A stretch of 64,000 bases of DNA from Methanothermococcus sp. Ax23 (GCF_049075655.1 NZ_CP157522.1:128001-192000); one strand, 5' to 3'. Positions 2,513 to 55,476 are shown, counted from the first letter of the stretch. Notes: generated by a model from the letters alone, not told the origin. Translations and numbers: made by a program.

Positions 2513-2549
2513 ATACAAAACATAGTTTTGTAAAATCTCTTACGAGATT
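2513..2549. repeat. 37-bp double-hairpin micro-insertion in the IS left-end hairpin
   Basis: Absent from the homologous left end at about 49395-49442; hairpins TACAAAAC-ATA-GTTTTGTA and AATCTC-TTAC-GAGATT; flanked by TT. Confidence 0.8.
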
Positions 2550-2656
2550 GGATGAGAGGCGGACATTCTATATTCCACACAATCAAAAATTATATGTAAT
2601 TAAATAATATGTAATTAAATATATAAACTATATTTATAAGAACTATGGTGAATTCC

Positions 2657-3918
2657 ATGCAAGTAACCAGAGTGCTGACAATAAACCTAACAAGAAAACT
2701 AACCAATGAACAATTAATAATCATAAACCATTTAACCTATTCAGCATCAAAACTCTGGAATACATCCAACTACGAAGTAATACAGCGAAATATTAAACCA
2801 AATAAAATAGATGTTCAAATGAAGAACAACTTCTGGTTTAAAAATCTTCATTCACAGTCAGCACAGGCAGTATGTCAAAAACTTCAAATTAGACGAAAAC
2901 CTTCGGTTTTCGTTGCTCGCTTGCTACGCAAGCGATTGCATGGCAAAACTACTTCAAACAGCACACTAAAAGACCACGATACCAACCAAAAGATGGACAC
3001 TTTCCCGTAAAATGGAAGAAGCAAGGTTTCAAAATCATAGGCAATAAGTTAAGGTTATCATTATCTAAACAAACTAAAAACTATCTCAAAGAGAAGCATG
3101 GTATCAAGTCCAAGTACTTATGGGTAGATTTATCGAAAACTCTACCGCTTGATACCATGCAGGTTAAAGAAGTTGAGATAGTTCCGCAGACCATCTATGG
3201 GATAACCTACTACATACTTCACTTAATCCATAAGAAACCAGTAATTCAAGAACCTATCAAAGAAGGTAATATACTAAGTATTGATTTAGGAATTAAGAAT
3301 TTAGCAACAGTAGTAACCAATACGGGCAGTGCAGTAATCTACGATGGAAGAAGGTTAATTTCTAAATTCCGATGGTTTGCTAAAAGTAAAGGAAAAATCC
3401 AATCTACCCTAACAAAGCAAGAGTTAAAATATAATAAACGATTATCCCGCTTAACAGTAAGGGAAAAGAATTATACTAAGGATTATCTACATAAAATAAG
3501 TAAAATGATTATCGATTTTGCAGTGGATAACAAAGTTTCAAGGATTGTAATCGGCGAGTTAAACAAAGGCATTTCAAGTATTGACATTGGAGATAGGGTT
3601 AATCAGCAATTGCATAGAATACCTTTTGGTAGGTTAGTAAGTATGATAACATATAAGGCAGAGGAAAAGGGATTAACAGTAGAACAGGTTAATGAAGCTT
3701 ATACTTCTCAAACTTGCAGTAATTGTGGTGTAGTTAAAAAGAGTAATAGGAAGTATAGGGGTTTGTATGTGTGTAGTGAGTGTGGCATGGTTTTGAATGC
3801 AGACATTAACGGGGCTTTGAATATTTTAAAAAAAGTATCGCATAAGGTAGCCCTGAATCTCCTAAACGGAGATAGGGGTAGTGGGCTTGGCAACCCATGT
3901 AGGGTTAGACCCTGCTAA
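2657..3918 (+). pseudogene. tnpB: TnpB RNA-guided nuclease, frameshifted by a 47-bp insertion
   Basis: Removing 2891-2937 joins the two ORFs into one 404-aa frame (QKLQI|AWQNYFKQ..KWKKQGFK..); SIDLG, IGEL, CxxC..CxxC and NADING motifs intact. Confidence 0.92.
2891..2937. repeat. 47-bp double-hairpin micro-insertion in tnpB
   Basis: ACGAAAACC-TTC-GGTTTTCGT plus TCGCTTGC-TAC-GCAAGCGA; ATT repeated at the junctions; homologue at 49139-49189. Confidence 0.88.
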
Positions 3919-3953
3919 AGAACCCCACGACTTTAGTCGTGGGAGTAGGTCAG
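3840..3953 (+). ncRNA. putative TnpB omega/reRNA scaffold overlapping the tnpB 3' end and right end
   Basis: Known IS200/IS605 architecture; this segment is retained in the deleted copy at about 49105-49262; 5' boundary approximate. Confidence 0.55.
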
Positions 3954-4030
3954 TTAATGCTAAAATCAAAGGTTTTTTAATCACCTTGAAGGAATTTTTA
4001 ATCCTCCACTACACATAGGATGGTGCCATT

Positions 4031-52716: not shown

Positions 52717-54111
52717 GTGGTTACAGTAATGAAATTTGGTGGAACTTCCGTAGGCGATGGAAAAAGAATAAGAAATGTAGCAAAAATAGCAATAAACAAA
52801 AAAAAGGAAGACAAGGATGTCGTAGTTGTAACCTCTGCAATGACACAAATAACAAACTCCCTTGTAGAGATTTCTAAACAGGCACTAGATGTAAGAGATA
52901 TTGCTAAAATTAATAATTTTATGGAAGAGATAAAAGAAAAACACGAAAATGCCATAGTAGATGCAATTAAAGACGATAAAATAAGGGATGATGTAAGAAA
53001 AATAATCCAAAGTTCAATAGACGAACTGGAAAAGGTATTAATAGGTGTGGCATACCTTGGAGAATTAACTCCGAAATCTAAGGATTACATACTTTCATTT
53101 GGTGAAAGATTATCCGCTCCAATTTTAAGCGGTGCTATTAGAGATTTAGGAAACGACTCCTTATTCCTTACAGGTGGCGAAGCAGGAATCATTACCGACG
53201 ATAATTATGGCTGTGCAAGACCATTAAAATTGGAAGTCAGACAGAGAATAACTCCGCTTTTAAATGAAAATATAATACCTGTTATCACAGGATTCATTGG
53301 TGGAACAGAAAAAGGAGAAATAACAACATTCGGAAGAGGAGGAAGTGATTACTCTGCTGCATTGGTAGGTGCAGGACTTGAAGCAGATATGGTTGAGATA
53401 TGGACAGATGTTAGCGGAATACTCACCTCAGACCCAAGAATAGTTGAGAATGTTAGAAGGATTCCAAAAATGTCATACATTGAAGCCATGGAGCTCGCAT
53501 ACTTCGGTGCAAAGGTTCTTCATCCAAGAACAGTTGAGCCATTAATGGAAAAAAACATTCCTTTAAGGATTAAAAACACATTTGAACCTGAAAATGAAGG
53601 AACATTAATTACAAATGACCAAGAATTAAGCGACAATATTATAAAGGCAATATCTGCCATAAAAGATGTATTTTTAATAAACATATTTGGTGCGGGGATG
53701 GTTGGCGTAAGTGGCACAGCCGCGAGAATATTCTCAGCACTTGGAAGGGCCGATGCAAATGTAATATTAATTACCCAAGGTTCATCAGAAACAAACATCT
53801 CCATTGTAATATACGGCGATGGGCTGGAAGCTGAAAACTGCATAAAAGAACTTAAAAAAGAGTTTAAAGGCAGCCCGCTGATAAAAGATATATCCATTGA
53901 TGATAATGTATGTGTAGTTTCAGTAGTTGGAGCAGGTATGAAAGGTTCCAAAGGCATAGCTGGAAAACTCTTTGCCGCAGTTGCTGAAAGTGGGGCAAAT
54001 ATAAAGATGATTGCACAAGGTTCATCAGAGGTAAATATATCATTTGTAATTGGTGAGGATGAGCTCGAAAAATGTTTGCAGACACTCCATAAAACATTTA
54101 TTGAAAAATAA
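52717..54111 (+). CDS. lysC: aspartate kinase
   Basis: [13 protein letters not shown], two ACT domains. Confidence 0.94.
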
Positions 54112-54177
54112 ATAATAATAAAATAAAATATAAAAAAACTAAAAATAAAATAATATATAAAAATAAAAAAATTTATT

Positions 54178-55377
54178 TTATTCTACAACTTTTTTGTTGT
54201 TCTTTGGATGTCTTTTTTCCTTATCTATTTCCATCTGTTTTAAAACTGAATCTAAGGCATCCTTTAATACTTCTATGAAATCCCATCTCTGTTTTTCAAC
54301 TACGAGCTGGATATCCTCCCCTTCCATTTCCATTCTTTTTGCGGTGGATAATTTAGGCTTTCCTTCTGCAACATAAAGTTTTCTTGGAGTTTTTACATAT
54401 ACTTTAACTATATAGTATGGAACCCCTCCTTTATCGTGCTCTTTTTTCATTACAATTTTAATCCAGTGGAGTCTTTTAGACTGCTTTGCTATTTTTTTAA
54501 CTTCTGTCATTAAAATTCTTTCTGCGAGCTCTCTCATTTCTTCATCAAATTCACCATGGAGCTCCACTTCAATTACAGATTCTTCTCTTAAATTCTTTAT
54601 ATATTTCATTATATCTATTCTTGTAACAATTCCTCTTAATGTTCCTTTTTTGGTAACCGGAACTCCTCTGATGTCGTGTTTCTCCATCAACTTTGCCACA
54701 TCAGCAATTGATGATTCTACATCCGCAGTGATAAGTGGGGAGTTCATAATCATAGATACTGGCTGAGCCATTCTTGGAACTTTCTCCCCCGCATACTCTC
54801 CAACGGTCATTTTTTTCTTAGGTTTAAATACTTTCCTTAAAATGTCATCCTCGGTAACTATCCCTATTGGGTCTCCTTCTTCATCGAGAACTACCAACCT
54901 TCCGATGTTGTATTTTCTCATTAAGCTCCTAGCTTTACCTATGCTTTCATCTTTATCAATTGTAATTGGACTTCTTGTCATTATCTTAGTTACTTTAACA
55001 TCTTTTAGGAGCTCCGATTTTCCTGCCCTTTTCATTATGTCATAGTCAGTTACAATTCCTACTAATTTTCCGTTTTCATCCACAATAGGTGCGGCTCTTT
55101 GACCACTGCCTATTATTTCACATACTGCATCCATTACTGGCGTGTTTTGGTCGATACAATGTGGTTTAAACATCAAAGCCTCAACATTTTCATTTAATGA
55201 TGATGCTAAAAGTAAATCATGTATTGTTATCATATGTATGTTTTCATTTTCATCCATAACTATTAAGTTGTGGAAGTTGTGGCTTTCCATTACCCCTATC
55301 GCCTTTGATATTGGAGTGTCTGGCGTGATTGTAATCACGTCTTTTGTTGCTATCTCTATTACGGGTTCGTTTAACAT
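54178..55377 (-). CDS. tandem CBS domain protein
   Basis: Four CBS repeats plus a C-terminal domain. Confidence 0.85.
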   Translation of the reverse strand: MLNEPVIEIATKDVITITPDTPISKAIGVMESHNFHNLIVMDENENIHMITIHDLLLASSLNENVEALMFKPHCIDQNTPVMDAVCEIIGSGQRAAPIVDENGKLVGIVTDYDIMKRAGKSELLKDVKVTKIMTRSPITIDKDESIGKARSLMRKYNIGRLVVLDEEGDPIGIVTEDDILRKVFKPKKKMTVGEYAGEKVPRMAQPVSMIMNSPLITADVESSIADVAKLMEKHDIRGVPVTKKGTLRGIVTRIDIMKYIKNLREESVIEVELHGEFDEEMRELAERILMTEVKKIAKQSKRLHWIKIVMKKEHDKGGVPYYIVKVYVKTPRKLYVAEGKPKLSTAKRMEMEGEDIQLVVEKQRWDFIEVLKDALDSVLKQMEIDKEKRHPKNNKKVVE

Positions 55378-55438
55378 ACCCTCACCTCATTGCCGTATTG
55401 TCAATAAATATATGAAAATAATGCTATTTAAACTTTTG

Positions 55439-55476
55439 GAGCGAAGCAGAGAGCTATATAAATCCGAAGGATTTTT
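55439..55476. repeat. probable double-hairpin micro-element upstream of the CBS gene
   Basis: GAGC-GAA-GCAGAG..AAATCC-GAA-GGATTT, same layout as the tmk insert. Confidence 0.55.

Follow-up and report, generated by a model that had tools for sequence, protein, structure and literature searches.

A widespread family of ultra-short double-hairpin elements in Methanococcales, well supported as mobile DNA

For Methanocaldococcus jannaschii, papers that cite the original work describe MJRE as dispersed palindromic repeats, some of which lie inside protein-coding genes without breaking them. RPE of Rickettsia are presented, in the passages drawn on here, as palindromic selfish DNA inserted in frame in housekeeping genes, and the REP literature, in the sections cited, describes a conserved GTAG tetranucleotide beside the hairpin (PMC3733652). 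Here we report on a 64,000-nt stretch of Methanothermococcus sp. Ax23 (NZ_CP157522.1), called the window throughout, which comprises bases 128001-192000 of a 1.66-Mb genome (32% G+C, 98.9% complete, plus a 7.7-kb second contig), and on a family of double-hairpin inserts, family A, with a modal length of 47 nt. Family A is well supported as a mobile family: its members are discrete inserts with constant ends, the same sites occur empty in paralogues and orthologues, and further copies exist genome-wide and across Methanococcales. A first-pass annotation of the window had proposed short non-autonomous insertion elements, smaller than the usual miniature transposable elements with inverted repeats (MITEs), and this description holds.

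Comparison by BLAST together with a hairpin scan defined the family A unit as a tag, T[T/C]AG, followed by a hairpin 1 of 9-10 bp, a spacer, T[G/A]C, and a hairpin 2 of 7-9 bp that ends in GA. Hairpin 1 has the form ACGAAA-variable-loop-variable-TTTCGT, and hairpin 2 the form TC....GA. Lengths among 44 distinct full-length members range from 42 to 57 nt; the tag reads TTAG in 29 of them and TCAG in 11 (not GTAG), the spacer is TGC in 24 and TAC in 11, and tags and spacers pair as two sub-lineages. Hairpin-2 types are interchangeable between members, and forms of 72 and 93 nt, with three or four hairpins, have the same ends and extra internal hairpins. The G+C content of the elements is 0.29-0.49, compared with 0.32 for the genome. 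A first covariance model, seeded with eight members of equal geometry, returned 121 hits in the Ax23 genome at E ≤ 1 and 66 at E ≤ 1e-3, and family hits were found in 19 of 31 Methanococcales genomes (30 relatives and the Ax23 genome itself, which is among the positives). This range is patchy, with 4 of 12 genomes of the same genus, 0 of 3 of one sister genus and 11 of 12 of a Methanocaldococcus-like genus positive; records of both Methanothermococcus and Methanocaldococcus have family members. One exact 47-mer recurs in at least five contexts in three genera (the tnpB gene of the insertion sequence IS-A described below, two sites in an rve-type insertion sequence of genomes G017 and G030, an insertion sequence deletion derivative and one other metagenome context); its metagenome occurrences lie in three contigs, one of which holds that deletion derivative. 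Solo copies are mutually different in sequence.

Among described kinds MJRE stands nearest: it comes from the same archaeal order and is palindromic and dispersed, and some family A copies likewise lie in frame within genes. The 2005 study of M. jannaschii MJRE1-3 by Suyama, Lathe and Bork (FEBS Lett 579:5281) is said to have counted 141 elements, 14.3 kb in total, with three MJRE2 copies in genes. By these figures MJRE average ~100 bp against 42-57 nt for family A units, though the 72- and 93-nt forms exist; family A may be a short form or a part of an MJRE family, which is what chiefly limits any claim of novelty. REPs and REPINs share with family A the very short length, the tag directly 5' of a hairpin (here TTAG or TCAG), the covarying stems and the lack of autonomy. 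However, REPs lie outside genes and a REPIN repeats one hairpin as an inverted doublet, whereas family A has two different hairpins in direct order, has copies inside genes for thymidylate kinase (tmk), a thiamine pyrophosphate (TPP) enzyme and transposases, and occurs here in a genome without RAYT/Y1 (PF01797); the sections of PMC3733652 cited contain no archaeal REP/RAYT case. The MITEs and PATEs of IS200/IS605 insertion sequences (IS) resemble family A in having a hairpin near each end and no duplication of the target, and in co-occurring with TnpB-type IS. In family A, however, one hairpin is 4 nt away from the 5' end and the other is flush at the 3' end, rather than ~10-20 nt inside, and family A lacks a specific 4-5-nt target, does not fit the guide rule and is several-fold shorter. 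A simple IS200/IS605 derivative was rejected on the target, guide and cognate-transposase tests, and a classical DDE-derived MITE because its two ends (TTAGAC... and ...AAGCGA) do not form inverted repeats and no duplication is consistent. RPE, which are ~100-150 bp long, resemble family A as palindromic in-frame inserts in housekeeping genes and differ in being bacterial and unrelated in sequence. Double-hairpin elements (DHE) are known from the mitochondrial DNA of Allomyces, and 'byps' from Magnusiomyces. Together with the GC clusters of yeast mitochondria these are units of 26-79 nt, GC-rich in AT-rich genomes, with one or two hairpins, mobile, prone to merging and shuffling and sometimes genic, all of which recalls family A, and their mover is likewise not established; they differ in belonging to eukaryotic organelles and bear no sequence relationship to family A. 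For GC42 of yeast the cited part of the paper gives a putative AG target duplication, whereas family A junctions show no constant AG. No description of the elements reported here was found in the literature searched, although a prior one cannot be excluded.

Four inserts in the window lie where the first-pass annotation had placed them. Two share one carrier, a TnpB-only IS of the IS200/IS605 type (IS-A; 2477-3953, plus strand), whose left boundary falls between TTAC and GATAAACC and whose right end is GGTCAG. Insert 1 (ins1; 2511-2547, plus strand) is a 37-nt double hairpin composed of TTAT, ACAAAAC-ata-GTTTTGT, AA and AATCTC-ttac-GAGA.., and ins2 (2889-2935, plus strand) is a frame-breaking 47-nt family A element in tnpB, composed of TTAG, hairpin 1 ACGAAAACC-ttc-GGTTTTCGT, TGC and hairpin 2 TCGCTTGC-tac-GCAAGCGA; it is this insert that supplies the 47-mer of three genera. 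The third, ins3 (5236-5280, tag on the minus strand), adds 45 nt, or 15 codons, in frame to tmk (4804-5448, minus strand), and ins4 (49139-49188, tag on the minus strand) is a 50-nt family A element in a MITE of ~340 bp (49105-49442, minus strand) that consists of the left and right ends of the same IS. The claim that each insert forms two adjacent hairpins is borne out by folding for three of the four. Folded as single-stranded DNA (ssDNA) and scored against 200 shuffles, with two z values per insert, ins1 (z -4.6/-4.3), ins2 (-5.9/-5.8) and ins4 (-7.0/-7.2) fall far beyond the shuffles, none of which equalled them. The ins3 fold does not (z -0.8/-0.5; 44 and 64 of 200 shuffles as good); its hairpin 1 needs tandem G.A and its hairpin 2 a G.T pair, neither of which is credited by the energy model.

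Membership of family A was likewise narrower than proposed, since of seven sites named as one family only ins2 (72.4-74.8 bits) and ins4 (52.3-62 bits) were recovered by the models and the other five were not. A second model, built from 54 family matches (45 distinct sequences) and run unfiltered over the window, gave ins2 74.8 bits and ins4 62 bits, compared with only 15.2 bits (E 0.26) for ins1, 16.1 bits for 7607-7644 and 15.4 bits for 55454-55490, and did not list ins3 even at E ≤ 10. Both ins1 and ins3 thus fall outside the models, yet they have the same architecture as family A. The second hairpin of ins3 is of the GAGC-GNA-GCGA type, and we treat ins3 as a putative sister sub-family because this hairpin-2 type (TTTCC-TCGC-tac-GCTCGGAAA) recurs in a bona fide family member (L025, genome ~365 kb). 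Two further copies of ins3, 82-83% similar, lie at genome positions 345.7 kb and 1108.8 kb, and the motif GAGCGNAGCGA occurs 15 times in the genome and 0 times in a Markov shuffle.

All four inserts are matched by empty sites, paralogous or orthologous, which bears out their reading as insertions. The ins1 site lies in the 3' arm of the left-end hairpin of IS-A (CCAACGAT-nnnn-ATCG^TTGG, the caret marking the junction); it is empty in 4 of 9 aligned MITE copies, including the MITE of the window, where the uninterrupted hairpin CCAACGAT-nnnn-ATCGTTGG occupies 49405-49424 (minus strand). Thirty copies gathered by their flanks have ins1, and in at least five copies the two halves abut. As for ins2, it splits the TnpB gene (Pfam OrfB_IS605 and Cas12f1-like TNB) into open reading frames (ORFs) at 2645..3010 and 3157..3918, and excising its 47 nt gives a single open frame of 408 codons. 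This insert is carried by 7 of 10 full-length IS copies; its site is empty in two close paralogues (genome 432 kb and 1301 kb) and in one 75%-identical paralogue, which has a different 45-nt family member ~40 bp downstream of the site. The codons of ins3 are missing from 10 of 10 aligned tmk orthologues in three genera, including those with 90% and 84% protein identity, and tmk matches in all 30 relatives span 525-597 nt compared with 642 nt in Ax23. The last insert, ins4, sits 5 nt upstream of the right-end hairpin of the MITE and is present in 4 of 9 aligned MITE copies and missing from 5; in the IS copy of the window its site (..CTGCTAA^AGAAC, 3915-3923, plus strand) is empty and lies directly 5' of the right-end hairpin at 3924-3943.

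Altogether about ten filled/empty events are documented, and the empty orthologous sites include those of tmk and of the TPP enzyme. The linker of the TPP enzyme has a 48-nt in-frame insert that is missing in the 90%-identical orthologue of G003, the closest relative, and a DDE transposase has a 57-nt in-frame insert (19 codons) that is missing in 16 homologues in G017. In a repeat carried by G015 and G024 the insert is 47 nt, and three copies of that repeat in Ax23 (G000) are empty; a 48-nt insert in G010 is missing at the Ax23 site. Two solo copies are common to Ax23 and G003, and one 45-nt insert is common to three Methanocaldococcus-like genomes. Inserts begin with the tag and end at the foot of hairpin 2. 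There is no consistent target duplication, the junction ambiguity of 0-4 nt varying by case (TT, AT, A, AAAT, TTAG), and 18 of 20 seed loci have A as the preceding base. Judged against a crude ORF map, 17 of 32 loci are intergenic, 5 lie at an ORF end and 10 fall within an ORF call, 4 of these calls being shorter than 90 codons and probably spurious; these 32 loci show no consistent orientation to neighbouring genes. Three copies lie well inside long ORFs, and their lengths (45, 48 and 57 nt) are all multiples of 3, while copies of 47, 49 and 50 nt lie between genes, overlap ORF ends or sit in transposase genes.

Pairing was assessed in a model-fitted alignment of the 54 matches (45 distinct), in which fitting to structure favours pairing; the palindromic nature of member sequences is nevertheless plain by eye. 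In this alignment 98.3% of 721 stem cells are paired, and 15 of 17 stem pairs change on both sides. Double changes occupy 127 cells, compared with 33.1 ± 4.4 in shuffles (none of 500 had as many) and at most 12 in slid controls, and only 5 cells show one-sided changes. The covariation claimed for the stems, including the ins2/ins4 pairs quoted in the first-pass annotation, is correct. Its statement that structure rather than sequence is conserved is half right: the stems covary, but sequence is also kept in the tag, at the foot of hairpin 1, in the spacer and at the TC...GA ends of hairpin 2, and one exact 47-mer recurs in three genera. Nearly all scored stem cells are Watson-Crick pairs (693 of 712, with 7 G.T and 10 A.C), and this strict pairing with hardly any wobble intermediates marks DNA palindromes, whose two strands both pair, and not an RNA helix; the constraint thus acts on DNA. 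On the tag strand the loop of hairpin 1 is TTC in 21 of 44 members and GAA in 4, and that of hairpin 2 is TTC in 17 of 44; the opposite strand therefore bears c-GAA-g or c-GTA-g triloops, in keeping with the proposal that such loops lie mainly on one strand. Oligonucleotide work has found c-GAA-g and c-GTA-g triloops to be unusually stable. In one orthologous 45-nt insert (L050 in G028, L053 in G029 and L069 in G027, at about position 1501), the triloop of hairpin 1 is TTC in some copies and GAA in others, as between G028 and G027, and a compensated closing pair accompanies this inversion; the loop therefore flips in situ.

Much of the copy number lies within IS-A and its MITEs. The carrier IS is present in 10 full copies and the MITE in at least 30, despite the lack of a Y1 TnpA gene in the genome, and the ends of the IS fit the IS608 pattern, with target TTAC, right end ..TCAG and guides AAAG and GAAC 5' of the hairpin feet. 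A further in-frame 48-nt insert in tnpB, ins5, occurs in three copies; the IS copy of the window has ins1 and ins2 and is empty at the ins5 and ins4 sites. Half of the family copies (33 of 66) occupy three IS-A/MITE sites (7 ins2, 3 ins5 and 23 ins4), and ~30 lie at other loci. Among IS and MITE copies all combinations of presence and absence of ins1, ins2, ins5 and ins4 are found. The inserts ins2, ins4 and ins5 together have 1 variable column in 146, compared with 30 in 286 in their flanks; haplotypes upstream of ins2 are common to filled and empty copies, and a 25-nt block downstream is linked to the insert. The simplest reading of these sequence patterns is that each insert had a single origin and then spread by recombination among IS copies. 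In a metagenome contig (OFDI01000066.1, L186, 3700-3870) the interior of IS-A is deleted exactly from the ins2 to the ins4 position and one element is left, with the 5' part of tnpB on one side of it and the right end of the IS on the other; this suggests that recombination at such elements can convert an IS to a MITE. Elsewhere in the genome, MITE copies at 1457 kb and 363 kb have an additional 30-nt hairpin-like replacement in mid-element (GTATCG...TGATAC). In a second TnpB IS family (genome 199.6-201.1, 336.4-337.9 and 1308.4-1309.9 kb) a double hairpin similar to those of family A is flush with the right-end hairpin, and what distinguishes the three copies is hairpin modules inserted on one or the other side of the left-end hairpin.

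The intactness of the interrupted transposase frames raises the question of their expression. All seven tnpB copies with ins2 have a full frame of 404-405 codons once the 47 nt are removed, their ratio of non-synonymous to synonymous change (dN/dS) is 0.12-0.24 at dS up to 0.34, and in the window the same codon, ATT, stands at both edges of ins2, 47 nt apart. An HTH + rve (helix-turn-helix and integrase core) transposase gene of G017 (L043, 1133-2100) contains two identical 47-mers, spaced 437 nt from one another, that interrupt it; without them it forms one ORF of 297 codons, the first of them places a TAG right after the junction codon, and the IS is present at least twice with both. Frame-breaking 47-nt copies might be skipped on expression, by ribosome hopping or by precise removal of RNA or DNA, a reading that could be drawn from the intact frames, the dN/dS values, the invariant insert, the ATT at both edges and the double restoration in G017; the interrupted transposase gene would in that case remain functional, with the hairpin as a conditional switch. 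The mitochondrial 'byps' are such a case, their sequence being skipped by ribosome hopping. For phage T4 gene 60, the source as cited describes hopping over a 50-nt gap. We consider skipping improbable for family A, as recent origin and recombination among IS copies explain the same facts more simply, and the dN/dS of tnpB cannot date ins2 because the differences cluster in tracts common to other copies, which indicates recombination.

As to what moves the elements, we would give an even chance to the explanation that family A is a non-autonomous, ultra-short mobile family, widespread in Methanococcales, that is likely moved in trans by a hairpin-reading enzyme of the HUH/Y1 type. The element would be recognised as folded single-stranded or cruciform DNA, and the enzyme would be supplied in trans and not encoded by the element; its likeliest class would be an ssDNA transposase that reads hairpins, of the HUH/Y1 kind, gained and lost along with IS200/IS605 elements. 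Inside IS and MITE copies, multiplication would proceed by hitch-hiking and by recombination among copies. With modest confidence we place an ssDNA enzyme that acts in trans and reads hairpins first among the mechanisms. Several inserts lie 0-5 nt from IS terminal hairpins or within them (ins1 within, ins4 5 nt away), and this clustering points to an insertion step linked to structure or to ssDNA. TnpB is present in all 14 genomes with at least five copies and missing from 8 of 12 family-negative genomes, and Y1 TnpA occurs in 6 of the 31 genomes (intact in 3, fragmentary in 3), all of them family-positive. Other observations weigh against this explanation. The TnpB co-occurrence may only reflect mobilome load, some copies riding inside those IS; 13 of the 19 family-positive genomes have no Y1 TnpA, and the Ax23 genome has 0 hits to PF01797 (Y1 transposase). 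At intact TnpA loci the hairpins are GC-rich (CACCGCCC-ttta-GGGCGGTG) and unlike those of the family. A regular-expression search of Ax23 for both ends within 6 kb of each other, as expected of an autonomous partner, returned only chance pairings and the 72- and 93-nt forms. Under the IS608-type guide rule (checked by eye), the TTAG/TCAG tag predicts a target ending in C, where the observed end is A; the carrier IS fits the same rule (AAAG/TTAC, GAAC/TCAG). No specific target tetranucleotide was seen (AAT^, AAAA^G, GGCA^G, TAAA^TTAG, CTA^T; only a preceding A or A-run is common), G.T and A.C mismatches are equally frequent among the 712 stem cells and indicate no folding strand, and the orientation of GAA/TTC hairpins shifts only weakly across GC-skew extremes (19:14 vs 15:30, among 78 hairpins from non-independent copies). 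Recombination can also account for a large part of the spread inside IS and MITE copies, given near-invariant inserts and all four combinations of two inserts. The first-pass annotation had looked to a co-occurring TnpA/RAYT gene, a bias relative to replication and mobilisation by an HUH enzyme; the gene is missing from a genome that is 98.9% complete, no replication-strand bias is evident beyond that weak shift, and the proposed enzyme class is absent here, found in only 6 of 31 genomes, associated with other hairpins and at odds with the guide rule. On the second contig (C2, 7.7 kb), a small replicon whose ORFs include one of 668 aa and three of 122-233 aa, ORF inspection found no obvious HUH Rep (no Pfam scan was made), and the models gave 0 hits.

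The same gaps lend some weight to movement by another route, through a structure-specific or homing-type endonuclease with repair, or through RNA-mediated copy-and-paste; we consider this possible, though clearly the less probable course. The lack of an HUH gene, the misfit to the IS608-type rule, the lack of strand bias and the homing-like presence of identical inserts at the same site in diverged IS copies would all suit it, and both routes have been proposed for the GC clusters of yeast mitochondria, which are equally small; the cited part of the yeast GC42 paper considers an endonuclease and an RNA intermediate and settles on neither. However, no candidate enzyme emerged (no search for a reverse transcriptase was made), target duplication is not consistent, and the near-absence of G.U-type intermediates with symmetric G.T and A.C mismatches argues against RNA-level selection. 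Transposition may alternatively have been rare, most copies having arisen by hitch-hiking and gene conversion in IS and MITEs with solo copies as old relics. The 33 of 66 copies at three IS-A/MITE sites, the four gamete combinations, the linked 25-nt block downstream of ins2 with upstream haplotypes common to empty copies, and solo copies that all differ fit such a history, which we nonetheless hold unlikely in view of ~30 further loci in unrelated contexts, lineage-specific inserts in single-copy genes and an exact 47-mer in at least five contexts in three genera. The strongly conserved stems and the 17 of 32 intergenic loci could also be expected of host-selected signals such as terminators, RNA stabilisers or protein-binding sites; this is very improbable, because copies lack a consistent orientation relative to genes, lie in coding regions, break transposase frames and are patchy within the genus (4 of 12 relatives positive), and the window has no Rfam match. 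Least credible of all is that the inserts are ancestral and the empty sites secondary deletions. Palindromes are deletion-prone, and presence or absence is uncoupled from flank haplotypes in IS copies; but the site is empty in all 10 tmk orthologues, from three genera, which contradicts deletion for tmk, the TPP-enzyme and tnpB frames are intact without the insert, and junction ambiguity of 0-4 nt is too short for repeated precise deletion. An archaeal bulge-helix-bulge intron, whose splice junctions form a 4-bp helix between two 3-nt bulges, was rejected, since no such pairing was seen by eye at the ins2 and ins3 junctions in the DNA sequences.

Other hairpin repeats are present besides family A. 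Three further motifs that the first-pass annotation had likened to the inserts are not the same element: 7527-7543 is a lone 7-bp hairpin, and 27647-27705 and 55437-55478 belong to other repeats. The interval 7527-7632 (plus strand) holds two solitary hairpins of the same style, ACGAAAC-ctt-GTTTCGT and ACAAAAATC-agaa-GATTTTTGT, which are not full elements. At 27647-27705 (plus strand) lies a different double-hairpin repeat, GCAACCTTT-aaa-AAAGGTTGC followed by TCCAA..TTGGA, with further copies at genome positions 251408, 470606 and 1259703, distinct from family A; a third hairpin repeat, GGAGCGAAGC.. with AAATCC-gaa-GGATTT, occupies 55437-55490 (plus strand). Outside the window another double-hairpin family of ~55 nt occurs in both orientations, with TCGA, AGCGAATCC-nnn-GGATTCGCT, GACTT, ACRAAAACTC-nnn-GAGTTTTYGT and CAAG in succession (genome 313974, 385523, 776936, 1121799, 1134572, 1232403 and 1296060). 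Genome-wide, perfect hairpins (stem ≥7, loop 3-5) number 638 compared with 274 and 274 in two Markov shuffles, and their commonest triloop contexts are CTTCG (58) and CGAAG (50). A loose scan (stem ≥6, one mismatch), dominated by noise, showed no enrichment of single hairpins across the genome (5042 vs 5103-5399), and hairpin pairs were about twofold enriched (205 vs 101-118). In the 64-kb window there were no Rfam matches at the gathering score and no tRNAs. A degenerate-pattern scan of wider genome contigs matched at least 89 stretches; 17 of the 84 examined had a paired hairpin 1, and among the matches listed, which are no census, 10 are real double hairpins by eye, all in Methanococcales DNA. 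Viral contigs gave 4 chance matches to the degenerate pattern and 0 to a 28-nt exact core. A perfect family member also lies in JASGMZ010000002.1 (L141), labelled a Bacteroidales metagenome-assembled genome; this record has 77% identity over 2,348 nt with the Ax23 genome and, judged by that match, looks like a mis-binned Methanococcales contig.

If confirmed, family A would be among the smallest mobile DNA units in a cellular genome and the first order-wide, structurally defined archaeal case, made of a 4-nt tag and two hairpins in ~47 nt. Such selfish hairpins add 15-19 codons to proteins, including the housekeeping thymidylate kinase and the TPP enzyme, and gene callers applied to Methanococcales may meet genes that the inserts have divided or extended. 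The elements also break into insertion sequences and reshape them, as in the metagenome IS reduced to a MITE exactly at an element, and they appear to seed multi-hairpin islands. Their constant ends, lack of target duplication, strict DNA-level pairing and GAA triloops, with no evident transposase, pose a mechanistic puzzle, in which family A would provide a prokaryotic analogue of the mitochondrial GC clusters and double-hairpin elements, themselves unexplained.

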